Made by a program: the position numbers and the translations under genes
Notes under the pieces: generated by a model
The model's database searches: none
Told to the model about the DNA's origin: nothing
Seen by the model: only the letters and a program-made list of their open reading frames with translations
In this document: positions 2,242 to 63,877 of the stretch, piece by piece
Layout: every line of letters begins with the position of its first letter
Numbering within the stretch: position 1 is the first letter of the stretch
Virus record (IMG/VR): IMGVR_UViG_3300007345_000003
Source: an uncultured virus (IMG/VR IMGVR_UViG_3300007345_000003)
Lineage: Duplodnaviria; Heunggongvirae; Uroviricota; Caudoviricetes; Crassvirales
Direction: 5' to 3' (one strand)
DNA: 64,000 nucleotides

Positions 2242-2245
2242 TATG

Positions 2246-2253
2246 CAAATATA
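2246..2253 (-). promoter_or_regulatory. Bacteroidota sigma70-type -7 element (TATATTTG), 4 nt upstream of ATG
   Basis: Minus strand reads TATATTTG-CATA-ATG, matching the TAnnTTTG consensus, in a 12-nt intergenic gap. Confidence 0.7.
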
Positions 2254-5061: not shown

Positions 5062-7733
5062 TATCTTCTTCTTTTACGTCTCACTGCTTTCGCTCTGCGA
5101 ATATAACCACCTGTGTTACCACTTGGTCTTTTTACTCTTCTTCTCACGCGTCCTCCCAGTTGTTTTTCTTCGCTCTCCTCTAGCTTCTCTTCTTGTTGTG
5201 CTACAGCTTCCTTAGACTCTTTTTCTGCAATGTCTTGGTTGTTCTGCTCCTTCTTCTCTTGCTTCTTACGGGCGAAGTATGCATTTATCTGCTCCTCTGT
5301 GTAGCCCATGTCTCTGAGCCGCTGTGCTTCGTATATGCCATCAGCCCCAATCTCTCTTGAAAGTCTCTCCTGAGCTCTGTATTCCAAGCTGTCTCCTGCC
5401 ATACCAGCAAGTCTGTCAGCCATAGCATCAAGTGCACCAAGCTTCTCTTCACGTCTGTCTCTGATCTGCTCACGTGCAAGAGATGCAGCGAACTGACCAG
5501 CCTCCAATCCAAGTTCAGCATTGGCTTTGTTTGCCTCAAGCTTCATGCGCTTTTCTTCTGCAGACAGCTCTTTGTTTGCTTTGTTTTCTGCATTTGCAAT
5601 CTCTCTATCTGCTGCTTGCTTTCTCTCCAACCCTGCAATCATGTTAACCATGCTAGCTGGACCCCCACCGCTGCCTTCAATTGCAGCCATGGTAGAACGG
5701 AAGTCATTTGCATTTGCAGAACGCTCAGCATTCAAGTTAACTCTAGGCATGTTAGGTGCCTGCACTGATGCAGCACCTGGGCCTGTTATGTATGCAGGCT
5801 GTGACTTAAATGCATAGATGGGTGGTATAAGCTGAGCTCCCATACCAAGCATTGCCAGTGTTGGGATCTCTCTAGTCTTAACGTCTTCGATGTCTCCTGG
5901 ATCGTCTGGTGTTTTCTCACAGCACTCTTGCTTCTTTGTACCATCTTCACACTCACATCCTGGAGTAGTAATAATCTCCTGCTCTACCTCTGGCATCTCC
6001 CTGCGTACTTCCCTAGGTTGTTCGGGCTTTTGCGGTATTGTAGCACTCTGAGTTTGATCACCCCACTTACCGTCTACCTTAATCTTTTGGTTGTCTGGTA
6101 CACGAGAGTTGTACTCCTCTTGGTACTTTTTTACATCCTGTGTGTCATCTACGTTAAACCCGTCCTCACCGAAGTCGATGTCTTTCACCCAGTGGCTCTC
6201 ATTCTGCAGTCTACCGTCTACGTCTTTGAGTGTAACGTTAGAGTAAAGGTTATCCCCAGTCTTGAATTGTAGCAGGCCTTCTGACCAGCGAGTCACCTCT
6301 TCTCTTCTTTTAGCTGTACCAGACTCGTTGTCTGTTTCTTTAGTTACTTCACCATCTTTGATGTAGAACTTTTCTCCCTCCTTAGCATCTTTGGGGTAGA
6401 GTGGGTGGTCAGACCCGATCTCTATTTCGCCCTCACGTATACCTGTTTTAGGCTTTTCTTTTTCTGGTGGGAGTGCATCTCCTTCTTGATACTTGCGTAC
6501 ACCTCCCTCTGCGTACACAGAAGACTCTCCACCAAACTGCATCACCTTAGGGGTTCTACCAGCTTTCTTCTCTTGCATCTGAGCAAGTTTCTGTATGTCT
6601 TTCTGGCTAGCACCACCATTCAAGAGTTCTTTATGCCTCTGTGCAAACGTCTTACCACCCAGTTTCAGGTAGTCAGAGAAGATGTAGTCTGTCTTTTTAC
6701 CGTCTTTTTTCATGTGTACTTTGTCCATTGTTTCCCCACCCTCGACTTCTGTCTGAGGATCGAGCATGATGCCGCCCTGTGAATGTTTCTTGCCTATGAA
6801 CTCTACAGCTCCGCCCGGCAATGGCTCTGTCTTTCCTCCCTCTAGTTTGGTTCCACCGTATATGTATGACCTGCTGTACTCACCCCCATCACGCATGCCT
6901 CGCTGTGCCAGGTATGAGTTTGTGATAGAGCCGACGTCAGCAAATCCTGTCTCACCTGATGTCTCGAACTGCTTTGCTTCTGCAGCCTGTTGTGCAAGCT
7001 GAGCTTGTTGTGCAGTACGCATTTGCTTTACAGCTTCCTTACGGTCTTTCTCTTGTTGCTTCTTCGCTTTCTTAGCTCCGAAGATACCACCAGCTACACC
7101 TGCCAAAGCTTGCAGTCCTTTACCAAACACAGGTACCTTGGCCAATGCTTGACCCACTTGGCTATCTGCTGCAGACTTAAACCCTGCACCAAACCCTGCA
7201 CGCTTTGCAGCCTTACGCTCCATTACATTGTTGCGGTATGGATCGGCTACTGCAGCCTTACCAGCCTTCTTTTCTGCATGCTTAGCAGCAAGCTGGGATA
7301 ATGCATTGACTGCAGTACCCATGCTGACAGCTCCCTTCAGTCCTTCTTTGAGTCCCTTTGCCCCGTCTTCAAATATGCCTTTAACTCCCCCAGCATCTGC
7401 AAGCTCATTCTGCTTCTTCATTTTGAAGTTTTGGATGGCTCCTTTGAGTCCACCCATGTTCGTCAAACCTGAAGCTGCATCGGATACAATTGGGGTGCTT
7501 CCATCTGAGAAGTCTAGTCCCCCACCCAAGAAGTCAAGTGCTCCACCCTCTTGCTTCTTTCGCACGTTCTCTGCAAAGATTGCTCTCTTTACTAGAGTTG
7601 GGTCGTTTGACTTTTTGGCACGGGCAATGCACTCAGCAGTTACCTTTCCTTTGCAGTATTCAGTGAACTTGCCGACAGTGCCCTTCCGCTTCATTCGCCT
7701 ATTGGCTTTCTGTATCCATTTGTTATCACTCAT
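5061..7733 (-). CDS. Virion cargo protein (890 aa) with basic N-terminal module, repeated GG motifs and a peptidoglycan-binding-like motif
   Basis: GKKHSQGGI...EVEGGET...YIFSD segment recognised from crAss-like cargo proteins; VKKYQ...KVDGKWGDQT motif; hydrophobic Gly/Ala segments; Arg-rich C-terminus; follows the muzzle gene. Confidence 0.7.
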   Translation of the reverse strand: MSDNKWIQKANRRMKRKGTVGKFTEYCKGKVTAECIARAKKSNDPTLVKRAIFAENVRKKQEGGALDFLGGGLDFSDGSTPIVSDAASGLTNMGGLKGAIQNFKMKKQNELADAGGVKGIFEDGAKGLKEGLKGAVSMGTAVNALSQLAAKHAEKKAGKAAVADPYRNNVMERKAAKRAGFGAGFKSAADSQVGQALAKVPVFGKGLQALAGVAGGIFGAKKAKKQQEKDRKEAVKQMRTAQQAQLAQQAAEAKQFETSGETGFADVGSITNSYLAQRGMRDGGEYSRSYIYGGTKLEGGKTEPLPGGAVEFIGKKHSQGGIMLDPQTEVEGGETMDKVHMKKDGKKTDYIFSDYLKLGGKTFAQRHKELLNGGASQKDIQKLAQMQEKKAGRTPKVMQFGGESSVYAEGGVRKYQEGDALPPEKEKPKTGIREGEIEIGSDHPLYPKDAKEGEKFYIKDGEVTKETDNESGTAKRREEVTRWSEGLLQFKTGDNLYSNVTLKDVDGRLQNESHWVKDIDFGEDGFNVDDTQDVKKYQEEYNSRVPDNQKIKVDGKWGDQTQSATIPQKPEQPREVRREMPEVEQEIITTPGCECEDGTKKQECCEKTPDDPGDIEDVKTREIPTLAMLGMGAQLIPPIYAFKSQPAYITGPGAASVQAPNMPRVNLNAERSANANDFRSTMAAIEGSGGGPASMVNMIAGLERKQAADREIANAENKANKELSAEEKRMKLEANKANAELGLEAGQFAASLAREQIRDRREEKLGALDAMADRLAGMAGDSLEYRAQERLSREIGADGIYEAQRLRDMGYTEEQINAYFARKKQEKKEQNNQDIAEKESKEAVAQQEEKLEESEEKQLGGRVRRRVKRPSGNTGGYIRRAKAVRRKRRR

Positions 7734-10700
7734 TATCTGTACGAATTACGGAACTTGGTACCGGCAGAATACAAATATATCAAATTTTTGCTCTCGTTAT
7801 TGCTGATAAGGCGTACTCCTAAGTAGTGTCCAATGAACTTCTTCTGTTCGTACCACTGCTTTTCCGTGTTTATGTATTCTGGGTTAGGTACCCCTTCATA
7901 GGTAAACATAGGAGTGTCCTCCCTAGTTGACTCAACTTTGGTTGTGAGTTTACCTACTACGTTAGGTTCACCTGTATTAATATAGCTATTGGTATTTACT
8001 ACGACAGCGGCCAAATCTCTGAATGAGTTGATGTACCATATCCCATCCACAAGCCTACAGTTGTTGAGGTAGTTGATTTCTGTAAACTCTCCGGATATCT
8101 GCGTAGTGTTGTAGACATAGAATCTGTCAAAGATTGGGAATGTCTGCCTCTTGAACTCTGTTGTATAGTCCTCACTTCTACTCTTTGCATCAGCCCAGTA
8201 GTACACGTTGCTGTACAGTTTAGCCATTGCTGGGTTAGCATTGTCAATGAACTCTAGCTCAAAGTTGTACAGTGTATTGTAGAAGTTACCTGGGTTGTCT
8301 TCATCGTTGTGCATGTACACACTACCCTTGTACATTGTGTAGTATGTCTGCTCACCCGTAATGAAGATGTCTGGTACGTAGCTGTGTCTGCTGATCCATA
8401 TCTGCAGGTCAGGTAAGTATGACAATGTCCACCCACTTTGTGTAAAGTACGTAGGGTTACTCAAGCCTATAGGTCCTGATTTCACATTACCCTTGTTGGC
8501 TGGGTGGTTTATGTCAGAAGCAATCTCCCTTGCTGTGTCAGAAGGACCAAGCTTGTCTATAGCTGTGTTCTCTCTGAATGCCTCGAGATTACGTCTATGT
8601 GTGTATTCTCTCTCGCTCTTGCTGAGCTTAACACCAGTTTTAGAATTGTTCTGCTGTACAGCAAAGAACATGTTGTTCTGTATCTCTATGGTACCGTCTT
8701 GCAGCCCATCTATTAGAGTCTGTGTTGGTAGAGGTTCTCGCTTTGTAAGAATGATCCTTTTGAACTTGGGGTCATATCCTACGATAAAGCCCATGGGTAC
8801 ATTCGTATTTGTAGGAGCGTCTGGGTAATACGGGAACTCATGAGCATCCACGTTTATACCGTACCGTTCTATCTCAAACGGTATGTTCTCTCTGAACCAA
8901 TGGTTCATGTTCCCCATCACTTCTGTGATGCCTTGGGTAAGCATGTGTACTTTTCTGCTTCTACGTGATACATAGAAGTGTCCTACTTCAGTTGTGTATG
9001 ACGAAAGTCCTGACATAGTACCACCATACCCTATCTCAGATTCCTGTAGCTCGGTTGGTGGTATTGCGAATATGTCACCGCTACCAATGAATGCCTTGAC
9101 ACTACCCAGCTCCAGCTGTTCATTACCCTTAGTTTGGAAGAGAGCTTTCTCTGTATGTACATACAACGTGTCGTTCATGGTGAACATGTCTGTGATGTCA
9201 CCACGCTTCTTAGGTATGTCAGCGTAATCGTTTGCCAAAAACTCCCTGTACCTGTCAGACAGTGCTCCTGTTGCAGATTTAGATCTGATGATTCTATTTC
9301 TGAACTGATCGTTCTCTTCTGTCCCCGCTCTCACTTTAGGGAATGGAACTGCTACCCTCTTATCCTGCACAAAGCTGAAGTGGTCCTCATACAACAACTG
9401 GTCTTGCTTTGTGAAGTCTTGTGTTGGGGGTGAGAACAATACCTCTGCTGCTGTATTGAAGTCAAAGAACTTCGTCGCCTGCCCCTTCTCACTGTCCTTC
9501 TGGTGCCTGAGTCCTATGTTGTCATCAGACTCTACCATGAACGTAAACAATGACGTGACTGGGTTAGAGTTGCCTTGCTGCCAGTTGTTAGCGTTTAGCA
9601 GTGTTTCAGATATGAACGACTCTATTTTGCCGACCTCTGTGCTGTTAGGGAACTCTGGGTATGTTGTATCTGTGATAGTAGTAATGAAATTTCCCTGCCA
9701 CACACTCATACCACCTGCAGTTCCCCAGTTGGTCAAGAAGTCATTAAGACTCAAGAAGTCTGGTACGTCTTTCTGTCTAGTGTTTTGTATGTATCCCAGG
9801 TTAACACCATTAGTTCCTGGGTTACCAATAACTTTGAGAGCATCAGTCGAATTAAGGCCAGAAGCGCCTGAAGGTCCTGCGTCACCCAAAGCACTAGACG
9901 CTCTGAACCAAGAATGGCCATAGCTATGAGATGTAGTGCGGAATGCGTACTTAGAAATGTAAGTATCCCCACCATATACTTCTGTTGATTCTGCTCCACT
10001 GAAGTATTTTTTCACTGGAGACAAGACCGTGCTACCACCTGCTGAAGTGAAGTCAAGATCATTTATGGCTGCGGTTGTACCAGTCTTCAATGCTGCATAA
10101 CATGCCCCTTCTGCTAAATTATACTTGTCTTCCCACTCTTTGAACTCTTCATCGATTGAGTAGTAGTAACCAGTCCATACCAGTTCTTGCTTGTCGAATG
10201 GTGTATATACATCAGTTTTCAGCGAGCACACATTGATCAGCCAAGCCATAGGATAGCCCCACTCGTAGTCTGCACCAGCTAGAGTGTAGTTCAATCCTTT
10301 GAAGTTAGAATTTTCTGTGGTTACACTCGAGCCATATAAGTACACGGCATGGTCAGGGATTGGTCGTACAGGTTTGGGATCTTTACTTGCTTGGAACCAA
10401 GCGTCAGGGAACAAGAACTTGTCGTCGTCTCCCCAAGCTGCTATGTTAAATGGTCCGTATTCACCTCCTCCGTCGTCAGATCCATCTCCCAGATACCAAG
10501 GGAATCCAGGTATTGCATTACCCTTAAATGGTACGAGTCCTTTCAAGTGAGGCAATCCACTAACTAGCGCCATAACAATTGAACTCTCCCCACCCCTGTT
10601 GAAGATGTACTGAGCTCCTTTGAATGAACTAGACTCTGCTGTCTTCAAGTTACGTTGCCCTGGCAGGTATGTTTTGCTACCAGGGTCAAGCATGAATGTA

Positions 10701-18933: not shown

Positions 18934-19158
18934 TTATTTTTTCCAAGATACCCGCTTAGATGATTGTTTTCTGCGCATACCTGCTTTTGTACATGCGCTC
19001 ATAGTAGGTCTGCAGGCCGGGTACCCTGTCTTCCTACTTTTCTTTGCTGACGATCTACCGCAAGGGACAAACTTACCTGCGGCTTTAGCTGCTTTGCAGT
19101 CTACCCAGCCACGGCCCTGGTTACGACCAAACCATTTTTTAAGTCCCTCGCTAGCCAT
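18934..19158 (-). CDS. Small basic Cys-containing protein (74 aa)
   Basis: GLKKWF...WVD...PCGR...YPACRP motif, recalled from aquatic phage structural regions. Confidence 0.7.
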   Translation of the reverse strand: MASEGLKKWFGRNQGRGWVDCKAAKAAGKFVPCGRSSAKKSRKTGYPACRPTMSACTKAGMRRKQSSKRVSWKK

Positions 19159-19559: not shown

Positions 19560-19865
19560 TTAGCACCGGCAGTTCCACTTGCGCAGTGACTTATTGATTC
19601 TTGAATTAGGATCTCTCTTACCCTTAGATCCTGTTCTCTTTGCTTTCATTCCACACATACGTGAGCAGAATGACTTTCTCCTGGACTTGCGTTTACCTGA
19701 GGGGTTAGACTCAGTTACTGGAGCAGCAAGTTTGCTCCCCGGGTTAGCAGCTCTGTAGGATGCCCTACCTTTTGCATTGAGACCTCCGCTTGGGTTTTTA
19801 CCAGCTTTCCTAGTCCAAGCAGCTCCTCTCTGATACTGTCTTTTATTTTTACTGAAGTATGTCAT
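19560..19865 (-). CDS. Small basic protein (101 aa)
   Basis: AW.RK.GKNP.GGLN.KGRASY...G..L.APV...RRKSFC.RM...R..KSLR.W.C motif, recalled from aquatic phages. Confidence 0.75.
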   Translation of the reverse strand: MTYFSKNKRQYQRGAAWTRKAGKNPSGGLNAKGRASYRAANPGSKLAAPVTESNPSGKRKSRRKSFCSRMCGMKAKRTGSKGKRDPNSRINKSLRKWNCRC

Positions 19866-22175: not shown

Positions 22176-23295
22176 TTGCCTGTAAATAGCCCTCAAGTCC
22201 TGTGGACTTATTCCATATATATGCTTGCCCTGTTCTTTTAGCTTCATACCCCATTTGCTTATGCCATTCATCGTTAGGACAAATAGAAGGTATGAACCGT
22301 ACTTTGATACCTCTGTACTCATTTACCATTTCTTTGTGGAGATGCCCGCAGTGCACTTCTCGGTGTTCTGTACGTGCAAACATCTCTGGTTTTTCAGTTG
22401 CCATTATTAGTGGCATGTCTGCAGGTTTCTCCTTATCACCATGTGTGAACATGATCATGTTCGTGCCATACTCGTAGTACTTGCGTGAATCATAGTCATT
22501 GTCCACGGTGACATTGGCATCATTTCTATACCATCCTGCTAACACATCTCCTGCATAGAACATGCGTTCGTAGTCATGGTTACCTGATACAACGATTACA
22601 TCTACCGGTGCTCTTTGCTTAAGGAAGTCGATCGCAGTAGTCATCAGTTGCCAGTAACCTCTAAAGGTATCCTTCCACCCAGCAGAGTCCTGCTGTGGTG
22701 TCCCTTTGGTTGTAGTACCTCTCATACCCTCAGAGTTCATACCGTCATTACCGATGGGAAGTATGAATCTTTCTATATCAAGTCCCGCCGCTTTTCTCCA
22801 GAGTTCTTCCACCACCTTCATGTACTGCTTCTCAACCTGATCAAGTGTCAGGCTATGAAGCTTTCCGTAGTGGATGTCGGGCAATGAGATCTCGTACGCT
22901 ACTGGCTCAAGAGCAGGCTTGTAGTCTACTCTGTTAACCTTGGGGCTGTACTTAGCTGCAAAGCTTTCTATCTCATCTTTGATTGCTTCGACGCTCATTG
23001 AGTCACCCTTTGTGACTACAGAGAATCTCTGCTGTCCTGACACAGTCTGCCAGAACTTTACACTAGAAACGTCGGACGGGCTGATGCCGTTCTTGTCAAG
23101 GAACTGTTCGAACTCACTAATGACACTCTCGTTATCATTCGTGTTTTCTTCATTACGTGCCAGCTTCCTGGCTTCGTACAACGCTGTCTCACAATCTTCG
23201 ATAGGGCAATTAAGTCTCTCAGATAGTACGTCAGCGCTTTTCTTAAGGTATCCTCGCCTCTCGGCGATGAAGTCTTTGATTTCGTTTACAGTCAT
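22162..23295 (-). CDS. Calcineurin-like metallophosphoesterase
   Basis: DIHYG, GND, GNHD, HGD and GHLH metal-binding motifs in canonical order. Confidence 0.85.
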   Translation of the reverse strand: MTVNEIKDFIAERRGYLKKSADVLSERLNCPIEDCETALYEARKLARNEENTNDNESVISEFEQFLDKNGISPSDVSSVKFWQTVSGQQRFSVVTKGDSMSVEAIKDEIESFAAKYSPKVNRVDYKPALEPVAYEISLPDIHYGKLHSLTLDQVEKQYMKVVEELWRKAAGLDIERFILPIGNDGMNSEGMRGTTTKGTPQQDSAGWKDTFRGYWQLMTTAIDFLKQRAPVDVIVVSGNHDYERMFYAGDVLAGWYRNDANVTVDNDYDSRKYYEYGTNMIMFTHGDKEKPADMPLIMATEKPEMFARTEHREVHCGHLHKEMVNEYRGIKVRFIPSICPNDEWHKQMGYEAKRTGQAYIWNKSTGLEGYLQANVRV

Positions 23296-23738
23296 GTGTT
23301 TGGTTTACGACTTTTTTCAATTGTTCTACCTGCGAAGTATGCACCGAATGCAGTAAGCATAAGTATCTCGAGCAGAGATACATAGCTGTCCTTTACATTG
23401 AAAGGCCATGCGTCCATGGAGTCTGCTATCATTGTAGCCATGAACATCACCATCAAACAGATCAGTGTGACGGGTCTGATGTACTTCGCAAGCTTTACAT
23501 CGCTACCCATGTCGGCTTTCCACCGCTCAGTAACGTTGTTTTGAAATGCTATCTCAGCATCTATCTTAGCCTTTGCTTCGGCTGGATCAATCCCTGGCTC
23601 TTTGTCCAAGAGATTCTTTACGACACCAAGTGCACCTTGGTCAGGGAGTAGGTCACCTACTGTACTAAGTACGTTAGGTGCCTTCTCCTTTAACCATTTG
23701 CCAAGGCCGGTATCTTTTATTTTTTTACGCTCACTCAT
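23292..23738 (-). CDS. Putative holin (3TM/GTA-holin-like)
   Basis: RW.ADM.SD..L.K.IRP followed by two hydrophobic helices, ending AYF.GRT.EK. Confidence 0.7.
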   Translation of the reverse strand: MSERKKIKDTGLGKWLKEKAPNVLSTVGDLLPDQGALGVVKNLLDKEPGIDPAEAKAKIDAEIAFQNNVTERWKADMGSDVKLAKYIRPVTLICLMVMFMATMIADSMDAWPFNVKDSYVSLLEILMLTAFGAYFAGRTIEKSRKPNT

Positions 23739-49706: not shown

Positions 49707-50015
49707 TTAATTGCAGTCTTTCTGCCGCAACTCATCCACAAGTATTTGCAGTTGTTCTACATCACGCTCTAAGTGATTGAGTCTGAGGTTCTGCTCAGCA
49801 TCATCAGGTAAGCTGCCCATCTCCCCTCTTGGCCACTTGATTCTGAACTCTGAGTTGAGTTCGATCTCTTGATTGTGACGCATAGTTTCTATCTCAAGCT
49901 GAGACAGTGCAGACATGATGGTGAAGTAAATCCATACAGCCCCACCAACACCTACAACGATTTGGATCAACCACTTAATGTTAATCCCGAAGTTTGTGGT
50001 GTCGTCAAGTTTCAC
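49707..50015 (-). CDS. Single-TM membrane protein with coiled coil (lysis-cassette candidate)
   Basis: TM segment WLIQIVVGVGGAVWIYF, then WPRGEMGSLPDDAEQ and a heptad region. Confidence 0.65.
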   Translation of the reverse strand: MKLDDTTNFGINIKWLIQIVVGVGGAVWIYFTIMSALSQLEIETMRHNQEIELNSEFRIKWPRGEMGSLPDDAEQNLRLNHLERDVEQLQILVDELRQKDCN

Positions 50016-50221
50016 TCCATCTTGTTTTTAGCGAGGAGTATCTTGATCTCTTGGATGTCTTTAAGGAGCTGCTTAACGTCGTCCTTAAACTCTTTGTTGT
50101 CTGCCTCCAGGGCGTAGACCCGAGATGATAGTTTGTTGTAGTCAGCTTGGAACTTTATCCAACCCCCGATTAACGATCCTGCTACAACTAAAAACTCAAA
50201 GTGAGATAGGTATTCTTCCAT
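50012..50221 (-). CDS. Small single-TM coiled-coil protein, holin-like (69 aa, probable start MEEYL)
   Basis: FLVVAGSLIGGWI TM followed by RV.ALE...IQEIKILL; the longer track ORF overlaps a better upstream ORF. Confidence 0.6.
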   Translation of the reverse strand: MEEYLSHFEFLVVAGSLIGGWIKFQADYNKLSSRVYALEADNKEFKDDVKQLLKDIQEIKILLAKNKME

Positions 50222-50234
50222 AGTGATAGGTGTG

Positions 50235-50369
50235 TCACCTACCCTGGCCGCGATATGCTTTCTTATAGTTCTTAGACTTCTTATGGACTGAAGTCTTGGT
50301 CTTAGCATGTACCCCAGGACGGGAGACAGTTTTACGAATGTAAATGTCGAATGCTGTTTGTTTTGCCAT
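50235..50369 (-). CDS. Small basic protein (44 aa), below the ORF-track cutoff
   Basis: MAKQTAFDIYIRKTVSRPGVHAKTKTSVHKKSKNYKKAYRGQGR; ATG lies 4 nt after a TAACTTTG promoter; first gene of the late arm. Confidence 0.75.
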   Translation of the reverse strand: MAKQTAFDIYIRKTVSRPGVHAKTKTSVHKKSKNYKKAYRGQGR

Positions 50370-50373
50370 GTGG

Positions 50374-50381
50374 CAAAGTTA
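50374..50381 (-). promoter_or_regulatory. Bacteroidota -7 element (TAACTTTG), first promoter of the late arm
   Basis: Minus strand TAACTTTG-CCAC-ATG. Confidence 0.7.
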
Positions 50382-50513
50382 AGTCAAAAAAATTATGTGG
50401 CAAAAAAAATTTTTGTGAGAGCGTGAACCTACACATTCAAAGACCCCAGCTATGTTGCGGGCTTCGACAGCCCCCGGTAGTACATTGTGTCACCCCTAAT
50501 TTAACAAGTCGCC

Positions 50514-50732
50514 ATGGCGAAATTCACTAAGAGCAACACGCAAGTAATGCGTGACCTGGACAATACCAAGAAGCTGGTCATTGTCATCGATGGGCAGGAG
50601 CCCATGTCCTTTTACGCGGACGAGGACGTCCTTGCCGCAGATTCGAACTGGCGTTCGCGTCTGCTCATACAGGAGGGAGACTATGGTCCCTTCGCTAAAC
50701 TCGAACGTCGTTTGGAGTTGCTAGACCTTTGA
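50514..50732 (+). CDS. Hypothetical early protein (72 aa)
   Basis: First plus-strand ORF after the strand switch. Confidence 0.6.
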   Translation: MAKFTKSNTQVMRDLDNTKKLVIVIDGQEPMSFYADEDVLAADSNWRSRLLIQEGDYGPFAKLERRLELLDL

Positions 50733-50855
50733 GTCTAGTTGCGCCAACCATCAGAGGTACAAGTTAGTGTGTGTGTACGACTACCAGGTCGTATGCACCA
50801 CTATCTGACCTATTTACTAACCATGCCAACCAGGGCATATACAAATCTATAGCAT

Positions 50856-51041
50856 ATGTTTGCTATCCTCCTCATCTCTATGGCATTCAACATTGTACTT
50901 GTTGGTACCATCTACTACCTTCTGGCTACCGATCAGTCAGACCTATTAATCATGAAGCTTCAGTCTCGCATCAATGAGCTGGAGTACGAACTGTCTAGTG
51001 CACGCACTGATGTGTACTTGGACGAAATCATTTCAGAATGA
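50856..51041 (+). CDS. Small membrane-anchored coiled-coil protein (61 aa)
   Basis: Hydrophobic N-terminus and heptads; stop overlaps the next ATG. Confidence 0.55.
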   Translation: MFAILLISMAFNIVLVGTIYYLLATDQSDLLIMKLQSRINELEYELSSARTDVYLDEIISE

Positions 51042-51259
51042 GCTCGAAGAAAGACTTACCACCTATTCCACAACCAGGGAATGTTAAGCTCAACCCTGTT
51101 GTCCATCGCTACAAGCAATGGAAATTGGATGGACCTCAATTACGAGAGGCTGCTAGACTAGAGCGTCAACGTCTGCAGCTTCTTGTTGTTAATCATCAAA
51201 AGCAAATAAAACAACTGACGCAAATCATTGAAGATCATGAAAACAACTCTGATCAGTAA
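51038..51259 (+). CDS. Hypothetical protein (73 aa)
   Basis: Coupled ORF with coiled-coil C-terminus. Confidence 0.5.
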   Translation: MSSKKDLPPIPQPGNVKLNPVVHRYKQWKLDGPQLREAARLERQRLQLLVVNHQKQIKQLTQIIEDHENNSDQ

Positions 51260-51395
51260 GGCATTAGCCTTCACGCTCATCATGTTTGGGATAGCTATAC
51301 TGGCTACCTCATGCAGTACGACAGCACATTACTCAACTGGGTACCACGGAAATGTGTACCACAAACAGTATAGCTCATGCGCTGCGTACAACTAA
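51237..51395 (+). CDS. Small predicted lipoprotein (52 aa), below the ORF-track cutoff
   Basis: MKTTLISKALAFTLIMFGIAILATS-C-STTAHYSTGYHGNVYHKQYSSCAAYN: basic N-region, hydrophobic h-region and lipobox ATSC. Confidence 0.65.
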   Translation: MKTTLISKALAFTLIMFGIAILATSCSTTAHYSTGYHGNVYHKQYSSCAAYN

Positions 51396-51739
51396 TCATC
51401 GTAATGCTTGTCTCATCCTCAGCGATGGGGCAAGCTTTCCAATGCGGTATGTTCGGTATGATCCAAGACGACTACGGAACACAATTCATTGGGAGGTTTG
51501 ACGACACTATGGACTTTGTGCTGCTTGAATCAGCATCGTCCTGTGAAGTCATGGAAGTACCCATCGCAGTATGGGATGTCGTACCAAGGAAGAGATACAC
51601 CAAAGTATTCCTCGACCTTGAGCATCCTGACTTTGACGATGCGGCATATCTGATACGATATCCCACCGGTGCGTGGAATATTGTAAAGGAAAGATCGTAC
51701 AAACAGAAATCGATGTCGTTCTTTCTAGGTGATAACTAA
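51377..51739 (+). CDS. Predicted secreted/periplasmic protein (120 aa)
   Basis: Signal peptide MRCVQLIIVMLVSSSAMG followed by Q, a residue common at +1 of Bacteroidota secreted proteins. Confidence 0.55.
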   Translation: MRCVQLIIVMLVSSSAMGQAFQCGMFGMIQDDYGTQFIGRFDDTMDFVLLESASSCEVMEVPIAVWDVVPRKRYTKVFLDLEHPDFDDAAYLIRYPTGAWNIVKERSYKQKSMSFFLGDN

Positions 51740-51741
51740 AT

Positions 51742-51942
51742 CCTTGGGTCTTAGACTATACAAGGTGGGGTAAACGACTCACCCTTAACACGAGTCGTCA
51801 CTGGGCCGTCATGTCCTATATACATGTCAGGGAAGAGCAGCATATTACAGGGCTGACGTCAGATGTAGACGTGTAGATAGGATACTACCTCTTCCCTTTA
51901 TTTGAAATCAATGGCGTAAGGTGACGGCCATCAACAGTCACC
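51742..51942 (+). ncRNA. Unidentified structured element with a perfect four-way junction
   Basis: Non-coding gap with nested perfect helices (see findings); strand inferred from neighbouring genes. Confidence 0.55.
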
Positions 51943-51973
51943 AACATTAAAATCATGTTAATCTCATAAAACC

Positions 51974-52561
51974 ATGAGTAACATTCTTAACAGCGGTTCA
52001 CTGGACACCCTCAAGTCCGGTCAGTGTTTGTTGGTTGGATCACGTCGCGTAAGCAACGGTAAAGTCCAGCTCGAGTTCGCCGAAGTACTTGAAGGTACTT
52101 CTCAGTCTAACAACAATGCGTTGGCTGCATTCAATGCATCTGATGACCGATTCTCTGCCACTAAGGCACGTCGGGCATGGATGACAGCGGAGCCTGTCGA
52201 TGCATCTGCTTTGTTGGGTGTGGACTTGACTGGTGGATACACCACAAACGAAATGGGACAGGAGATCAAGTCCCTCAATGTCATCAACCCTGAAGCCCTT
52301 GGCAAGGCTCTTCGTGTGCAAATCACGGAGACTGTTGAGCCAACCGAGTGGCAGATGGAGAACCTTGAGACAGCTGCAAAGCGTCGTGGCAAGGACGGTG
52401 ACTACATTACCCACAAGGGTATGTACATCTTCGCTAACACCAACGTGGTGTTCGGAGAACCAAAGCACACTTTCTTGGAAGCTGATGCACCTGCAAACGC
52501 AGGTGGTGGCATCATTGCTTCTCAAAGTGTGAACGTTGCTACTGGAGAAATCCTGTCGTAA
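51974..52561 (+). CDS. Hypothetical protein (195 aa), possibly ssDNA-binding
   Basis: A-rich leader, followed by a terminator; beta-rich with a flexible C-terminal tail; the SSB role is inference only. Confidence 0.6.
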   Translation: MSNILNSGSLDTLKSGQCLLVGSRRVSNGKVQLEFAEVLEGTSQSNNNALAAFNASDDRFSATKARRAWMTAEPVDASALLGVDLTGGYTTNEMGQEIKSLNVINPEALGKALRVQITETVEPTEWQMENLETAAKRRGKDGDYITHKGMYIFANTNVVFGEPKHTFLEADAPANAGGGIIASQSVNVATGEILS

Positions 52562-52568
52562 CACAACG

Positions 52569-52597
52569 GGGGTGAGTGTAACAGCTCACCCCTTTCT
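52569..52597 (+). terminator. Rho-independent terminator
   Basis: GGGGTGAG-tgtaacag-CTCACCCC-TTTCT. Confidence 0.65.
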
Positions 52598-52692
52598 ATC
52601 TCAGGTTTGGGTAACAGTGCTTCCGCAAAGGCTGTCATAGGGGTATGACACAGTACATATGGGCACTGAGGGTTCGACTCCCTCCTGAGATA
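52598..52692 (+). ncRNA. tRNA-like element (acceptor stem and T-arm, non-canonical core)
   Basis: ATCTCAG/CTGAGAT 7-bp stem, GAGGG-TTCGACT-CCCTC T-arm and discriminator A; no canonical D or anticodon arm. Confidence 0.6.
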
Positions 52693-52725
52693 CAATTATT
52701 ATTCAAACCAAAACAACAAATTACG

Positions 52726-52932
52726 ATGGGTAAAATGAAAGAGATTGCCATGATCATACAGGAGGGGGAGACTGAAACTCTCGAACTCATGCGTGACATG
52801 GCTAAGAAACACGGTCGGTCTGGGGTATTCTTCCGAGGTCGCAATCTTACCTTTGAAGAAGCAGACAACATGTTAAACCTTATCTACCATGAGCAGAATA
52901 AGATTCGTGGGGACCAACAGTCCTCTCAATGA
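52726..52932 (+). CDS. Hypothetical protein (68 aa, probable start MGKMKE)
   Basis: ATG after an A/C-rich leader; the longer track ORF would overlap the tRNA-like element. Confidence 0.55.
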   Translation: MGKMKEIAMIIQEGETETLELMRDMAKKHGRSGVFFRGRNLTFEEADNMLNLIYHEQNKIRGDQQSSQ

Positions 52933-54742
52933 TATCCAGACGGCGACGATTCAGGAATGCAAGACGTATTGTGAGGGCAAGACAGTTCTGGGTGTGGACA
53001 CTGAGACTGAAGGCTTTGACTTCACGTGTAAGAAGCTCATCATGTTCCAAATTGGGGACAAGGAGAGGCAATACGTCATCGATACCAGAGTCGTCGACAT
53101 CTCACCACTCAGAGACATACTCGAGTCAGACAAAATCATCAAGGTTTTGCACAACGCTAAGTTCGATTACAAGTTCATCAAGATGTGGGCTGGAATATCG
53201 ATGGAAGAAATGTACGATACGTTTCTTATGGAGAGAGTTATCAATTGTGGTAAGCAAGACCATGGATACTCTCTTGCCAGGTGCGTCGAAAGATATCTCG
53301 GTAAAACTCTCGATAAGGAAACGCGTAACAAGTTCATTGGGCTCCAAGGTCAACCTTACACCGTTGATCAGATTACGTATGGGGCGAACGATGTGGTTTA
53401 TCTGCTTGACATACGGGAAAAACAACTTGGACTACTTCATACGTATGAACTACAACAAGTCGCCCGTCTTGAGAATAAGGTAGTCAAGGTCTTTAGCGAG
53501 ATCGAGTACGAGGGTCTGATAATTGACAAGGACAAGTGGACAGCTATGGCAGAGGACAATGTCAAGCTGGCATACGAACAGGAGCTGAAGCTTGATAAAA
53601 TGGTGTTGGCACATCCTATGCTAAAGCATTACCGCTTACCTGTGCAAGCTGAATTGTTTGCACCTATGGATGACATACGACAAACCCACATTAAGTGGAG
53701 CTCCCCTTCGCAAACCCTTGAGCTATTTCAAAACCTAATACCTGGACTTGAAGATGTTAACGGTAAGAAACTCAACAAGTACAGATACAAAATACCACTG
53801 ATAGATGAATACATTAGATACAAAGAGCGGACAAAGCTCGCCAATGCGTACGGTACTAAGTTCTTCAATTACGTCAACTGTGACGGAAAGGTGCATACAA
53901 ATTTCTCTCAAATATTGGATACAGGACGAGTTTCTTCCTCTAAACCAAACATGCAGCAGATTCCAAGCGATAACACCTTTAGAAATTGTTTCACCGCACC
54001 CGAAGGCTGGGTCTTCGTCTCAAGCGATTATTCTTCACAGGAACTAAATGTCATTGCTTATGGGAGTCAAGACCCTGTGTGGCTGGACGCCCTTGAAAAA
54101 GGACTGGATCTTCATGGAGTATGCGCCGACCTTGTCTTCGAAGATAAGTGGAGGAACGCGGATGCTGATGAGAAGAAGAAGCTACGCACACAGATTAAGG
54201 CGATTAATTTCGGACTCGCCTACGGAATGGGACCGTTCAAACTGGCAGATACTCTACAGATATCTAAAGCAGAAGCGGAGGATCTTATAGAGAAATACTT
54301 TACAGAGTTCCCTAACATCAAAGATTTTCTACAGAAACTTGGTACATTTGGTACCAGGCACGGCTATATCCAGACGTTCAGGCCGTTCAAACGACGTCGC
54401 TGGTTCGACACATGGTTCCCCAAGATATGGGATGACCGGTCGAAGATGCAGGAGTTTGGGAGCATTGAGCGTGCTAGTAAGAACACCCCAATTCAGGGCT
54501 CGTCAGCTGATATGACTAAGCTCGCACTCATTTACATTCACAGAGAAATACAAGAATCATGGAGTAACAACGTAAAGATTGTCATGACGGTCCACGACCA
54601 GATTGATACGATATGCAAAGAAGAAGTTGCCGATGCATGGGCAGTCAAGATGACTGAGCTCATGGAGAAGGCAGCAAAGATCATTATACCTAACGGTCTA
54701 TTGAAAGCAGATACTAACATCTCACAGACGTGGGAGAAATAA
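52889..54742 (+). CDS. polA: DNA polymerase family A with 3'-5' exonuclease domain
   Basis: Exo motifs DTET, HNAKFD, YG.ND; TGR.SS..PN.QQIP; motif A DYSSQE; motif B R...KAINFG.AYG; NTPIQG..AD; motif C VHDQI. Confidence 0.92.
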   Translation: MSRIRFVGTNSPLNDIQTATIQECKTYCEGKTVLGVDTETEGFDFTCKKLIMFQIGDKERQYVIDTRVVDISPLRDILESDKIIKVLHNAKFDYKFIKMWAGISMEEMYDTFLMERVINCGKQDHGYSLARCVERYLGKTLDKETRNKFIGLQGQPYTVDQITYGANDVVYLLDIREKQLGLLHTYELQQVARLENKVVKVFSEIEYEGLIIDKDKWTAMAEDNVKLAYEQELKLDKMVLAHPMLKHYRLPVQAELFAPMDDIRQTHIKWSSPSQTLELFQNLIPGLEDVNGKKLNKYRYKIPLIDEYIRYKERTKLANAYGTKFFNYVNCDGKVHTNFSQILDTGRVSSSKPNMQQIPSDNTFRNCFTAPEGWVFVSSDYSSQELNVIAYGSQDPVWLDALEKGLDLHGVCADLVFEDKWRNADADEKKKLRTQIKAINFGLAYGMGPFKLADTLQISKAEAEDLIEKYFTEFPNIKDFLQKLGTFGTRHGYIQTFRPFKRRRWFDTWFPKIWDDRSKMQEFGSIERASKNTPIQGSSADMTKLALIYIHREIQESWSNNVKIVMTVHDQIDTICKEEVADAWAVKMTELMEKAAKIIIPNGLLKADTNISQTWEK

Positions 54743-55864: not shown

Positions 55865-56625
55865 TAGTAACGCTCACGTCGATACCCTCTCGTATGGAGT
55901 ATCTACACGTTGCGTTGCATACTTTGTTGACTCAGACAGTGAAAGCGGATAGGGTGGTTCTATCACTTCCACATGAGTCAATACGTGAGAAGACAGGGTA
56001 TGTACTAAGCGAAGCAGTGCAGAAACTTGTCGACTCCGGATACGTGGAGCTGTTGCGTTGCAAGGACTACGGTCCTGCAACCAAGCTCCTCGGTGTCTTA
56101 GAACAAGAGATGGGGAAGAAGGAAAGCATTGAGCCTTTCATCTTCTTCTTTGATGATGATAGAGCTTACCACAGCAATGCTGTAGAGATCCTGTTACGTA
56201 GTGGATTGCTAGACAGGGGACATGCAGCATGCAGAATGGGGAGTATAGTCTACCAAAACCCTTGGGGTGAGGAGAGAGTATGCTCTGCAAATATTCGTCA
56301 GCCAGAAGAGGTAAATGTTCTTCTTGGTTACAGCGGTGTGGCTGTACGACCATCTTACTTTGATGAACGTGTATTCACCCATGAAGTAAAGGACTCTTTC
56401 TTCGTGGATGATGTGCATCTGAGTGGTAACTTGCGTCGAAATGGGGTGAAGATATTTGTCCCACCAGCACCACCAACACAATGGCAAATCGAAGCAGGGG
56501 AAGCAGGTTTCTTGGAGACTGATCCAGGTCTGAAAAGCACCAACATTAACCCTTTGCATGCGATAAACCACACCAAACTAGATCATACCTTTAATACTTT
56601 GAAACACTTCAAACTGCCTCGGTAG
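55843..56625 (+). CDS. GT-A fold glycosyltransferase-like protein
   Basis: IVTLTSIPSR......L..LL.QT...D, D.GP.TKL, DDD..Y (DxD), G..GV...P and DD..LS motifs. Confidence 0.75.
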   Translation: MYDGRKLIVTLTSIPSRMEYLHVALHTLLTQTVKADRVVLSLPHESIREKTGYVLSEAVQKLVDSGYVELLRCKDYGPATKLLGVLEQEMGKKESIEPFIFFFDDDRAYHSNAVEILLRSGLLDRGHAACRMGSIVYQNPWGEERVCSANIRQPEEVNVLLGYSGVAVRPSYFDERVFTHEVKDSFFVDDVHLSGNLRRNGVKIFVPPAPPTQWQIEAGEAGFLETDPGLKSTNINPLHAINHTKLDHTFNTLKHFKLPR

Positions 56626-56856: not shown

Positions 56857-57267
56857 ATGGACCATCACATCTATCCTGGTTTGAGTATATCAGCTCAGAC
56901 CCTAATCAAACATGGAGTAATACTCGGAACTGGTGAACTAGACATCGTAGCGGCAGCATGCTGCGATGAATATGACATCACCATCAAAGAGTTCAAGAGC
57001 AGAACCAGACTACGTACACTGGCTGATGCTCGCAAAGTATTCTACTTAATATGTAGAAGAGATTTACACAAGTTTACGTGCAAAAGACTCGGCATGTATA
57101 CGGGTAGGGATCATTCGACAGTGACTGTTGCAGTGCAGCGTGCAGAAGAACTCACAGAGATTGATCGCTCATTTAGAGTCAAGTACAATCATGCTAAAAT
57201 GATAGCACGACAAAGACTAAAACTAAACGGCTATGAATTTGACGGAATGCCAGAAGCTCCGGTCTGA
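56857..57267 (+). CDS. DnaA C-terminal (domain IV)-like HTH DNA-binding protein
   Basis: S..R.R....AR....Y..R.........G...GRDHSTV signature. Confidence 0.8.
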   Translation: MDHHIYPGLSISAQTLIKHGVILGTGELDIVAAACCDEYDITIKEFKSRTRLRTLADARKVFYLICRRDLHKFTCKRLGMYTGRDHSTVTVAVQRAEELTEIDRSFRVKYNHAKMIARQRLKLNGYEFDGMPEAPV

Positions 57268-62448: not shown

Positions 62449-63471
62449 ATGATCGAAGCACGCAAGAGTGACGTATACCTAAGTAGAGATAACGTACTTG
62501 AAAAAGTCTCTGAGTATCAGATATTTAAGTACTTTTGTAGAAACTTCAAAGAGATAGGTGTAAAGTTTCGTAGTGATCTTCGAGACGACAAGTCCCCCAC
62601 AGTTGACATCTCCCTTATTGGGCAGAGGTTATTGTACAAGGACTTCGGTCACCCAGATCATACGTTCGATTGCTTTGCATATGTCGGTTACAAATACAAT
62701 TTAGATTTCTATGGAACACTTATACACATTGATGGCTGTTTTGGGTTGGGTCTCTATACTGGTGTACGTGTTGGGCGGCCTGTACGAAAGGTGGAGCCAC
62801 AAGTACGAGCAAAAACAAAAGCAGAAATCCGAGTCAGAGTAAGGGACTGGGACAGCAGAGATGCGGCCTACTGGAAACAGTTTGGTATCAGTAAAAAATT
62901 ATTACGTATCTTTGATGTTCAACCCATTACACATGTCTGGATTAATGAACAACGTTTTTCGTGCAATAGTATCAGCTATCGTTACCGCTTTGACTGCGGT
63001 TATAAGATTTACCGTCCGCTTGAAGGAGATTTTAAATGGTTTTCTAACGTGGGGATGGAATGTCTTCAAGGCTATCGGCAGCTACCTGAACGTGGTGAGA
63101 CTTTGGTTCTCACAAGTTCCCTCAAGGATGTCATGTGTCTGGCGGTGCTTGACTACCCATCCATTGCTTTACAATCAGAGATGCTTGTGCCAAGTGAAGG
63201 CACCATCGAAGAAGCGCAAGCGCGTTTCAAAAAAGTAATCGTCCTCTACGACAACGACTTTGACAATCCTCGTAACCCTGGCCAGACAATGGCCGTTAAG
63301 ATCTGCGAGAAGTACGGACTTGACAATCTTGTCATACCTTCGTATTATAGGTCCAAGGATATCTCGGATCTAATAAAGGATCACGGGTTACAAGAAGCAA
63401 AAAATGTCATCGAGAGGAAAGAGAACAGGCGCACGTACATCAAGAAAGAAAGTACGGAACGCCAAGAGTAA
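62449..63471 (+). CDS. dnaG: DNA primase (DnaG/TOPRIM type)
   Basis: S.LR.D..P, YKDFG, YW..FGI, KIYRP, TSS.KDVM, YDND and KDISD motifs. Confidence 0.88.
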   Translation: MIEARKSDVYLSRDNVLEKVSEYQIFKYFCRNFKEIGVKFRSDLRDDKSPTVDISLIGQRLLYKDFGHPDHTFDCFAYVGYKYNLDFYGTLIHIDGCFGLGLYTGVRVGRPVRKVEPQVRAKTKAEIRVRVRDWDSRDAAYWKQFGISKKLLRIFDVQPITHVWINEQRFSCNSISYRYRFDCGYKIYRPLEGDFKWFSNVGMECLQGYRQLPERGETLVLTSSLKDVMCLAVLDYPSIALQSEMLVPSEGTIEEAQARFKKVIVLYDNDFDNPRNPGQTMAVKICEKYGLDNLVIPSYYRSKDISDLIKDHGLQEAKNVIERKENRRTYIKKESTERQE

Positions 63472-63877
63472 AGAAGTAGACGGTATCAAGTTTAGGTCTC
63501 AGCTAGAGGCCCACTGCTACAGGCAACTTAGAGATGCTGGTATCAAGTCAGACTATGAGAAGAAGAAGTATGTTCTCATGGAAGGCTTTCACTACAGCAA
63601 CGAGTCCTATGAGGACAATGGTAAGACAGGATTCCAGGACAAACAGAAATACAAAGTCCGGGATATTACTTACACTCCTGACTTCGTCGACCCACAAGGT
63701 CGATGGGTGATAGAGTGTAAAGGCTATGCGAATGAACGCTTCCCACTCAAGTGGAAAATGTTCAAGAAACTGCTGATGGAACAGGATGATCCTCCTGTAC
63801 TCTTCGTTCCGAGGAACCAGAAGCAGAACATCGAAACAGTAAACAAAATTCTAGAACTGATAGCCCCTACTAAATAG
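63404..63877 (+). CDS. PD-(D/E)xK endonuclease
   Basis: DGI.F.S.LE..Y, YTPDF......IECKG motifs. Confidence 0.85.
   Translation: MSSRGKRTGARTSRKKVRNAKSKEVDGIKFRSQLEAHCYRQLRDAGIKSDYEKKKYVLMEGFHYSNESYEDNGKTGFQDKQKYKVRDITYTPDFVDPQGRWVIECKGYANERFPLKWKMFKKLLMEQDDPPVLFVPRNQKQNIETVNKILELIAPTK

Follow-up and report, generated by a model that had tools for sequence, protein, structure and literature searches.

A horizontally shared 69-nt four-way junction in a gene spacer of an aquatic crAss-like phage

Genes and folded elements at the locus

The DNA analysed here is a single stretch of 64,000 nucleotides (64 kb; hereafter, the window) from an aquatic crAss-like phage, whose terminase is 40%–43% identical to those of uncultured crAss-like phages. 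The stretch was present in DNA and RNA runs labelled aquatic or freshwater. Up to ca. 50 kb, the − strand encodes the terminase, portal, major head protein and two proteins of ca. 2200 aa, and the + strand thereafter encodes a DNA polymerase, a helicase, two tRNAs and a DnaA-domain-IV protein. The only tRNAs called by ARAGORN in the window are located at 56616 and 56769, and a Holliday-junction-resolvase-like protein is encoded at 63404–63877. The spacer considered here lies between a 120-aa gene (51377–51739, + strand) and a 195-aa gene (51974–52561, + strand), and a local canonical terminator follows at 52568–52593, with a ‘CCCC-TTTCTAT’ flavour similar to the tail of the element described below. 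A previous, sequence-only reading of this spacer had listed ten strand pairs, arranged as a perfect four-way junction, an enclosing outer helix, an alternative hairpin, two candidate pseudoknots and two 5′ hairpins, and had taken them to suggest an undescribed riboswitch- or ribozyme-like RNA controlling the 195-aa gene, with a single-stranded-DNA structure as the alternative. All ten pairs are present where it placed them and are complementary as claimed, with 9, 4, 5 and 4 bp in the junction, 8 bp in the outer helix, 6 bp in the alternative hairpin, 8 bp (one G-U) and 5 bp in the pseudoknot candidates, and 5 and 7 bp in the two 5′ hairpins.

The 120-aa gene, identified as an ORF with homologs in L003, L004, L005, a close relative of the phage (G002; terminase 93% and polymerase 88% identical) and a diverged relative (L093), encodes a small, hypervariable protein whose N-terminus resembles a signal peptide and in which the motifs CGMFG and YPTG[AS]W are conserved. 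The protein is 40% identical to its homolog in G002 and 53% identical to that in L093, and had no Pfam or PHROG match. The structured unit begins 2 nt past its stop codon with hairpin 1 (51742–51765, + strand), which consists of an outer CCTTG/CAAGG stem, an inner GGTC/GACT stem with a + strand G-U pair and a conserved loop. This hairpin is retained through two-sided changes in L093 (CCTCTG/CAGAGG) and in the diverged homolog L263 (CCTTTG/CAGAGG, inner GGCC/GGCT). Helix S1 (GGGT/ACCC, 51768–71 with 51781–84, + strand) was found in the consensus fold with L093, including a change from U-A to G-C, and helix S2 (ACGACTC/GAGTCGT, 51774–80 with 51792–98, + strand) was confirmed by a complementarity check. 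In L093, by our own reading, CACGT/ACGTG takes the place of S2, and the S1/S2 segment (51768–51798) is absent from L263. S1 and S2 overlap and could form an H-type pseudoknot, with which L093, the one sequence compared, is compatible. Hairpin 3 (CATGT-CCTATAT-ACATG, 51810–51826, + strand) is a predicted fold, retained as CATGTG/CACATG in L093 and GCATGT/ACATGC in L263. In the consensus fold, hairpins 1 and 3 and S1 show compensatory changes in relatives. Our best reading, still a tentative one, is that of a non-coding cassette of ca. 160 nt in the order hairpin 1, S1/S2, hairpin 3 and the four-way junction (cloverleaf). The cassette had no significant similarity to the spacer modules of L003–L005.

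The perfect four-way junction occupies 69 nt at 51829–51897 (+ strand), and its assignment draws on the fold, a scan, near-identical copies elsewhere and the diverged homolog L263. A 9-bp closing stem carries arm 2 (4 bp, 10-nt loop), arm 3 (5 bp, 7-nt loop) and arm 4 (4 bp, 8-nt loop), with no unpaired base between any two helices and no internal loop. The MFE structure of the 69-nt RNA was exactly this junction (−24.3 kcal/mol, z = −3.18, 1 of 200 shuffles as good), and DNA parameters gave −14.5 kcal/mol (z = −4.70, equalled by 0 of 200 shuffles). We then searched for sites at which a closing stem of 7 bp or more encloses exactly three abutting hairpins (stems of 4 bp or more) and leaves every junction base paired; 51829–51897 was the single site in the window, and 60 dinucleotide shuffles contained none; when the closing stem was relaxed to at least 5 bp, one junction each was found in 2 of the 60 shuffles. 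Given that this is the only site in 64 kb and that no shuffle produced one under the initial settings, the junction is more than a chance arrangement, and this part of the sequence-only reading held up. The wider 236-nt region was marginally structured (z = −1.96 on the + strand and −2.14 on the − strand). No second perfect junction was found in 84 kb of related loci by a Watson–Crick-only scan, which also misses copies bearing G-U pairs. Directly 3′ of the closing stem lies the T-rich tail TTATTTGA (51898–51905, + strand). Runs rich in T come after the element in G002 (TTTCTCAT) as well, and in G003 (TTTGATTT), a member of another phage group, although not clearly in L263; at least five T among the eight bases past the closing stem were counted in three of four downstream contexts. 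The 51-nt branched loop of the junction could not be scored by a simple terminator scanner.

The remaining pairings of the sequence-only reading fared less well. The helix GGCCGTCA/TGACGGCC, proposed to enclose the junction, is incomplete in relatives, its 3′ strand being missing from G002 and its 5′ strand from L093 and L004. The proposed pseudoknot partners TGTCCTAT and TACAT are taken up by hairpin 3, the local CATGT-N7-ACATG hairpin that L093 and L263 retain; in addition, pseudoknot 1 carries an uncompensated change in L263 and its partner is absent from G003. The loop–loop complement between hairpin 3 and arm 4 shrinks from 5 bp in the window to 4 bp in L093 (CCUA/UAGG) and to 2 of 5 in L263, according to our own reading. 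By arithmetic estimate, made with no tool, an 8-bp complement within 236 nt, as in the outer helix, and a 5-bp loop match, as in pseudoknot 2, are both expected by chance, and the 8-bp pseudoknot 1 is moderately unlikely by chance, at roughly 0.03. The alternative fold through 51920–51942 also lost its footing, with that hairpin conserved on its own and the outer helix unpaired in G002, L093 and L004.

The 195-aa gene (51974–52561, + strand) was not linked to the junction. Its product has 408 homologs, all unnamed or hypothetical, and had no Pfam match above the cut-off, no PHROG match and no PDB sequence match. The protein model (mean pLDDT 79) gave no convincing fold match, the best Foldseek E-value being 0.16 and the best VIA Z score 3.8. 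The fold searches returned weak small-barrel or OB-like rows only, with Z at most 3.8. Relatives of the protein were found at 10 loci, and only the two that are identical to the window upstream carry the junction; the other eight, including L003 (96% protein identity), share nothing with 51480–51900 and contain no cloverleaf by a covariance model of the element (R1, described below). Instead, the gene is preceded by a conserved hairpin of its own, GGTGAC-GGCCATCAACA-GTCACC (51920–51942, + strand), which ends ca. 31 nt 5′ of the ATG and whose loop has the conserved form CCATYAACA. When six sequences were compared, 97% of the cells of this hairpin were paired and three of its six pairs were changed on both sides, indicating covariation. 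A homologous hairpin (GGGGAC-TACCATCAAGT-GTCCCC) precedes the 197-aa gene of G002 at the same position, although the product of this gene has no detectable relation to the 195-aa family (BLASTP E = 1.7, hhalign probability 0.3%), and the window contains no second copy. Because the hairpin is shared by relatives of the gene that lack the cloverleaf, it is a separate element tied to the gene position.

The 69-nt core as a discrete, horizontally shared cassette

The covariance model R1, built from the element, was used to filter pattern scans of viral, metagenome and genome collections. Near-identical copies of the core were found on six viral-collection contigs and seven metagenome contigs, although the two collections may overlap. 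In one pattern scan, 28 of the 32 stretches were judged by eye to be chance matches in unrelated sequence; in the metagenome scan, 46 of 53 stretches had no R1 match. A further scan applied R1 to 86 of 94 loci, the eight omitted being from contigs already known. Among the individual matches, L151 (R1 E = 0.009) lies within a repeat in an apparent coding sequence and was judged a chance match, as was L251, a single match to the hairpin 1 pattern. Representatives of 185,579 bacterial and archaeal species yielded no copies in scans able to find near-identical copies only (two patterns, giving 0 stretches and 0 of 31 true by R1). Searches of a phage collection with 51300–52700 (blastn) and with the 195-aa protein (tblastn) gave no match. 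The nearest record, G001, matched neither 51300–52700 nor R1, and its contig probably ends before this region, judging from the terminase offset.

Across other phages, the core is 96%–100% identical and occurs as four sequence variants, which differ at positions 1/69, 2, 17, 35 and 41; the closing stem has 9 bp in the window but is shortened to 8 bp in L047 and to 7 bp in L048. These nearly invariant cores are embedded in four kinds of flank, namely those of the window type, G002, L093 and the G003/G004 group. Between the window and G002, an 89-nt spacer is identical at 89 of 89 positions and the cloverleaf at 66 of 69, the upstream proteins are 40% identical and the downstream sequences are unrelated, the element in G002 being followed by a 140-aa lipoprotein-like gene and then a 59-aa gene. 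L093 is 53% identical to the window in the upstream protein and 72% in the spacer, with compensatory changes, and matches it at 67 of 68 positions in the cloverleaf.

G003, G004 and four metagenome contigs belong to another phage group, in which the element heads an array of odd tRNA-like genes; in G003, a hairpin with a T5 run lies immediately 5′ of the element. The DNA polymerase of the window had no match in G003 or G004. Its terminase had no match in G003 in one search and was 22% identical over 251 aa by BLASTP, and identity to the G004 terminase was 23%. R1 scored 102.9 and 99.9 bits in G003 and G004, compared with 103.7 bits in the window. G003 and the window also have in common a holin (82%), a fibre-type C-terminal domain (66%) and a 74-aa protein (73%), which suggests that both phage groups meet in the same host. 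Conversely, the element is absent from the phage represented by L003 and G005, in which the terminase is 92% and the 195-aa protein 96% identical to those of the window.

According to R1, the window, G002, G003 and G004 contain one copy each. Homology between the different contexts stops no more than 2 nt from the 5′ base of the closing stem and a few nucleotides from its 3′ base. The flanks (TC on the 5′ side, TT on the 3′ side) carry no target-site duplication, and no protein is common to the element-carrying genomes alone. The core is a discrete cassette, shared horizontally and independent of the 195-aa gene. More broadly, small structured modules form a mosaic in the spacer ahead of the replication genes in this lineage of aquatic crAss-like phages; the other interchangeable modules are best read as minihelices with a tRNA-like acceptor stem and T arm.

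The four near-identical variants show no covariation: two-sided changes were seen in 0 of 22 pairs, and 19 of 22 are invariant. The complete four-arm fold therefore rests on thermodynamics and one diverged sequence. This sequence, L263, was found in a search with the upstream gene family; after a tRNA-like minihelix, it contains recognisable forms of hairpin 1, hairpin 3 and the cloverleaf at ca. 64% identity (our reading). Arm 2 of L263 is changed from CAGC/GCTG to UGUC/GACG, two of its pairs having both members replaced and a third becoming U-G, arm 4 is unchanged, pair 1/69 is changed from A-U to C-G, and the closing stem has two mismatches. Arm 3 is essentially lost (one of five pairs), and the MFE fold of the segment (z = −0.62) differs from a four-way junction. 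Two loop motifs, UACAGG and UAG-A, persist. Arms 2 and 4 and the closing stem thus look ancestral and constrained, and the perfection of the junction looks like a property of the near-identical allele that spread. Covariation was found in the flanking hairpins and in arm 2 of L263, but not among the near-identical variants or for pseudoknot 1.

Strand, transcript boundary and resemblance to known elements

The proposed use of G-U versus A-C bias to assign the strand gave a mostly, but not wholly, consistent picture. Read on the + strand, three of four variants have a G-U pair at 31/41, L263 has one at 10/27, and another is present in the inner stem of hairpin 1. The only signal for the opposite strand is A-C on the + strand at the two outermost closing pairs, equivalent to G-U on the − strand. 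The element is co-oriented with the flanking genes in all four genome contexts, which represent two independent lineages only. RNA-library contigs were examined in four of the six RNA runs containing the stretch. Upstream contigs span the 120-aa gene and reach 51801, 51854, 51852 and 51850, downstream contigs start at 51925, 51925, 51927 and 51909, and no contig in the four runs bridges the gap or covers 51855–51908; the DNA runs contain all sampled words. In three RNA runs, the contigs stop 43–47 nt short of the T-rich tail, although contigs show neither RNA ends nor strand. These contigs give a weak hint of a transcript boundary inside or just past the cloverleaf. By reasoning, the contig breaks might also arise from co-occurring relatives that share 31-mers.

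Searches against Rfam did not place the element in a catalogued family. At the gathering score, the whole window yielded two tRNAs only. With E-values up to 10, the interval 50000–53000 yielded nothing credible, RF00005 and self-cleaving ribozyme families being absent, and the same was true at E-value thresholds for L003–L010, where nothing credible was found. No self-cleaving ribozyme or riboswitch family was found with E-values up to 5 in L198, L199, L200, L063 and L093. The self-cleaving families sought in Rfam 15 were hammerhead, hairpin, twister, twister-sister, pistol, hatchet and HDV-like. A full-text literature search found no description of such an element, which is no proof of absence. 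The unit is therefore real, structured and uncatalogued, as the sequence-only reading had supposed, but its designation as a riboswitch- or ribozyme-like leader did not survive the comparison of relatives given below. A conserved small peptide was not found either: the 21-aa ORF at 51811–51876 has three of three substitutions in G002 non-synonymous and no start codon in G003.

In cloverleaf topology and size (69 nt), the element resembles a tRNA (RF00005), and tRNA-like modules are its neighbours in G003/G004 and L263; similarly to phage tRNA genes, it is single-copy and exchanged between phages. However, it differs from a tRNA in its stems (9/4 versus 7/5 for the acceptor and T stems), in the lack of connectors and of T- and D-loop signatures, and in a G in place of U33. 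A canonical tRNA was rejected, since ARAGORN made no call even with lowered thresholds, in intron mode or in mitochondrial modes, and RF00005 gave no match. Specifically, the arm 3 loop AGAUGUA places G at position 33 and U at 37, the fourth-arm loop is AUAGGAUA, and the junction is without a T-loop motif, D-loop signature, connector bases or CCA-like end.

The position past a stop codon, the stem followed by a T-rich run in three of four contexts and the apparent transcript boundary are reminiscent of intrinsic terminators and 3′-UTR stabilisers. An intrinsic terminator needs no conserved primary sequence, whereas the primary sequence of the element is over-conserved; moreover, its ‘loop’ comprises 51 nt in three hairpins, and L263 lacks the tail. 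REP/BIME/MITE-like repeats are also nested palindromes that form a four-way junction on either strand, lie between genes and vary in presence between relatives. Unlike these repeats, the element is single-copy, phage-borne and free of target-site duplication, no host copies of it were found, and its G-U pairs are strand-specific. A multi-copy REP/MITE-like repeat was accordingly rejected, with one copy per genome and no near-identical copies in the cellular genomes scanned. The ‘promoter-early stem-loops’ (PeSL) of T4-type phages are mobile regulatory cassettes that are conserved, non-coding and present in many copies. The element may be comparable with PeSL as a cassette that borders variable genes of an early phage region and is tied to module shuffling, but differs in having no demonstrated promoter, a single copy and a four-way junction instead of a simple stem-loop.

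A precedent among crAss-like phages is the Cellulophaga phage phi14:2, for which a previous report describes highly transcribed early intergenic RNAs of unknown function and early promoters with no common motif (10.1101/2020.03.07.982082). Both are non-coding, structured, located in early-arm spacers and carried by crAss-like phages of aquatic Bacteroidota; the phi14:2 regions are nevertheless much longer and share no sequence or model similarity with the element. R1 found nothing convincing in positions 1–9000 of phi14:2, where the best match (12.7 bits, E = 0.089) lies inside a coding gene. An origin of replication was also considered, the element lying near the strand switch and GC-skew turn in the window and G002, but was rejected, as in G003/G004 it lies 3–6 kb inside a gene block.

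Possible roles of the module

We infer that the element acts as RNA, and we propose a role at that level. Our preferred explanation, to which we assign a probability of roughly 0.4, is a structured RNA of the sense strand that forms a module at the 3′ end of the upstream transcript, is exchanged horizontally and most likely serves as a transcript-end or punctuation structure. The cassette would be read on the + strand as the tail of the transcript of the 120-aa gene, and the cloverleaf would be one of several interchangeable tRNA-sized modules between this hypervariable gene and the replication genes. The 69-nt core moves as a unit between phages and has reached an unrelated group that shares host-specific genes. 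Acting in cis at the RNA level, its closing helix and U-rich tail might end or protect the upstream transcript, and the next unit would start a few bases downstream with its own conserved 5′ hairpin.

This transcript-end explanation is consistent with the sharp module limits, the + strand G-U pairs, the co-orientation with neighbouring genes, the compensatory changes in arm 2, hairpins 1 and 3 and S1, and the T-rich tail in three of four contexts, together with the weak hint from the RNA-library contigs and the precedent of the phi14:2 early intergenic RNAs (10.1101/2020.03.07.982082). It has to accommodate the 0 of 22 covarying pairs in the four variants, the loss of arm 3 and of a clear T-tail in L263, and the A-C variation of the outermost closing pairs on the + strand; the promoter and terminator assignments are, moreover, predictions. 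A second terminator also seems redundant in G003, where a canonical-looking hairpin with a T5 run lies just upstream, and the loops are nearly invariant although a terminator would not need their sequence. This last point also speaks for a rival explanation, a stand-alone, trans-acting tRNA-sized RNA excised from a longer transcript, serving as a mimic, decoy or substrate of host tRNA-handling or defence enzymes. Stems and loops are near-invariant while neighbouring genes are 40%–53% identical or unrelated, which implies a constraint on sequence, and the motifs UACAGG and UAG-A survive in L263. The placement within arrays of tRNA-like modules in G003/G004 and L263, the travel between phage groups that also share host-specific genes, and the possible coaxial stacks of 9+4 and 4+5 bp, which by our reading come near the 7+5 and 4+5 bp of tRNA, point in the same direction. 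We nevertheless regard such a role as possible but doubtful, as ARAGORN and Rfam (E up to 10) recognised no tRNA, the T-loop motif, connector bases, U33 and CCA-like end are missing, and no context leaves room for a promoter of its own. The RNA contigs, which do not cover the whole element, weigh weakly against it; small RNAs are usually lost from such RNA libraries.

A further rival is an element at the DNA level, either a small selfish nested palindrome or a recombination hotspot or linker, which would fold as cruciform DNA or, as the sequence-only reading had also considered, as single-stranded DNA, and would mediate the shuffling of modules when phages co-infect a cell. The near-identity of the spread copies next to the drifted L263 copy, as expected after recent spread, speaks for it. 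The sequence folds equally on both strands, with a better z score under DNA parameters (−4.70), its presence differs among close relatives (present in G002 and the window, absent from G005), its breakpoints are sharp and its flanks differ, and the phage encodes a Holliday-junction-resolvase-like protein (63404–63877). We consider a DNA element unlikely, however, given the single copy in all three records carrying it and no paralog in the window, the lack of target-site duplication, the absence of near-identical copies from the representatives of 185,579 bacterial and archaeal species, the strand specificity of the G-U pairs, the orientation that follows transcription, and no transposase-like gene noted alongside. 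Far less probable is a leader of the riboswitch or ribozyme type, regulating the 195-aa gene by means of pseudoknots and alternative folds. All pairings proposed for it are literally present, the CCUA/UAGG loop–loop complement survives in L093 (4 bp), and three RNA-library contigs end at 51850–51854, in the junction centre, which could reflect cleavage although contigs cannot show ends. Synteny, however, unlinks the element from the gene, as L003 (with G005) has the gene without the element and G002 and G003 (with G004) have the element with other neighbours, and the leader reading is thereby contradicted. The outer helix is lost in G002, L093 and L004, pseudoknot 1 is uncompensated in L263, the conserved hairpin 3 contains the partner of pseudoknot 2, and no self-cleaving or riboswitch family matched in Rfam. 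Because the junction has neither internal loops nor unpaired junction bases, no pocket could form, which also argues against a riboswitch. The results thus do not support a leader of this kind. A functionless chance arrangement of short complements, for which the short arms (4–5 bp) and the marginal z scores of the wider region might speak, can be given practically no weight; it is contradicted by the 96%–100% conservation across unrelated flanks, and 0 of 60 shuffles and the compensatory changes in arm 2 of L263 also count against it. A bolder proposal, which we think rather improbable although well above the last two, is that the element represents a new class of mobile tRNA-sized four-way-junction RNA, traded among the phages of one host because it engages a specific host factor; it might, for instance, mimic the substrate of a tRNA-directed enzyme or defence nuclease or act as a decoy for it, and might be processed at the junction centre, where the three RNA-library contigs end.

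CrAss-like phages rank with the most abundant viruses, and an explanation for their early non-coding RNAs is lacking. Here, the initial reading is corrected in that the module is not a riboswitch of the 195-aa gene. What stands in its place is a perfect four-way junction that is exchanged nearly unchanged, even with an unrelated phage group sharing host-specific genes. Should the module prove to target a host factor, it would represent a new type of accessory RNA in phages; should it be no more than a selfish palindrome or a structure at the transcript end, it would still be a useful marker of recombination boundaries.

Structured units flanking the cloverleaf

Upstream of the cloverleaf, the helices GGGT/ACCC and ACGACTC/GAGTCGT (window 51768-51798, plus strand) are interleaved in the manner of an H-type pseudoknot. 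Judged from base pairing, this topology would be compatible with such a fold, and the same arrangement is possible with different bases (GGGG/CCCC and CACGT/ACGTG) in L093, a diverged relative whose cloverleaf is near-identical. Different structured modules occupy the same spacer in relatives, both at loci that lack the cloverleaf (L003, L004 and L005) and at L261 and L263, and structured modules were also observed 3′ of the cloverleaf in L047, L048 and L063. Several of these modules are minihelices whose acceptor stem and T arm resemble those of a tRNA but which lack a normal anticodon arm, and a module closed by ACACAGCC...GGCTGTGT is common to L003 and L004. Neither ARAGORN nor Rfam called any of the modules at these eight loci.

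In the window itself, a 94-nt tRNA-like unit (52598-52691, plus strand) lies immediately 3′ of the terminator of the 195-aa gene. Its acceptor stem is 7-8 bp long and its T arm is perfect (GAGGG-TTCGACT-CCCTC), but where the D and anticodon arms would be there is a long hairpin. The unit was called neither by ARAGORN at standard settings nor by Rfam; when the ARAGORN threshold was lowered, 52611-52693 was reported as a tRNA with an unknown type and an anticodon of four bases. The crAss-like Cellulophaga phage phi14:2 carries a 78-nt unit (1772-1849, plus strand) at a site where its record has no feature; the acceptor stem of this unit is 7 bp long, and it also has a T arm, GAAGG-TTCGAAT-CCTTC. 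This unit is located in a long early non-coding stretch.

Neighbouring genes and the leader hairpin

The upstream 120-aa gene (window 51377-51739, plus strand) has a signal-peptide-like start and the family-wide conserved motifs CGMFG and YPTG[AS]W. Divergence of this family among close relatives is far above that of terminase or polymerase: identity between the window and its close relative G002 is 40% for the 120-aa protein, compared with 93% for the terminase and 88% for the polymerase. In the divergent region separating the two gene arms, a weak Rfam match to RT-17 RNA was observed (50251-50380, minus strand; E 0.55), scoring 21.8 bits where the gathering score is 40.4.

The leader of the 195-aa gene contains a conserved hairpin (51920-51942, plus strand) whose loop is conserved as CCATYAACA. 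The DnaA box consensus is TTATCCACA, and the loop loosely resembles it (6/9). The phage also encodes a 136-aa protein consisting of DnaA domain IV alone (56857-57267, plus strand; Pfam PF08299, E 1.9e-12).

Proteins shared with otherwise unrelated phages

A 157-aa protein (63404-63877, plus strand) gave a match (E 3e-15) to the PHROG family ‘Holliday junction resolvase’ and has distant homologs in G003 and G004, which belong to an unrelated phage group with a near-identical cloverleaf. Three minus-strand products, a holin (23292-23738), a fibre-type C-terminal domain (19560-19865) and a 74-aa protein (18934-19158), have homologs in G003. Because these proteins share 66-82% identity between otherwise unrelated phages, their sequences point to an exchange of host-specific modules between the phage group of the window and that of G003.
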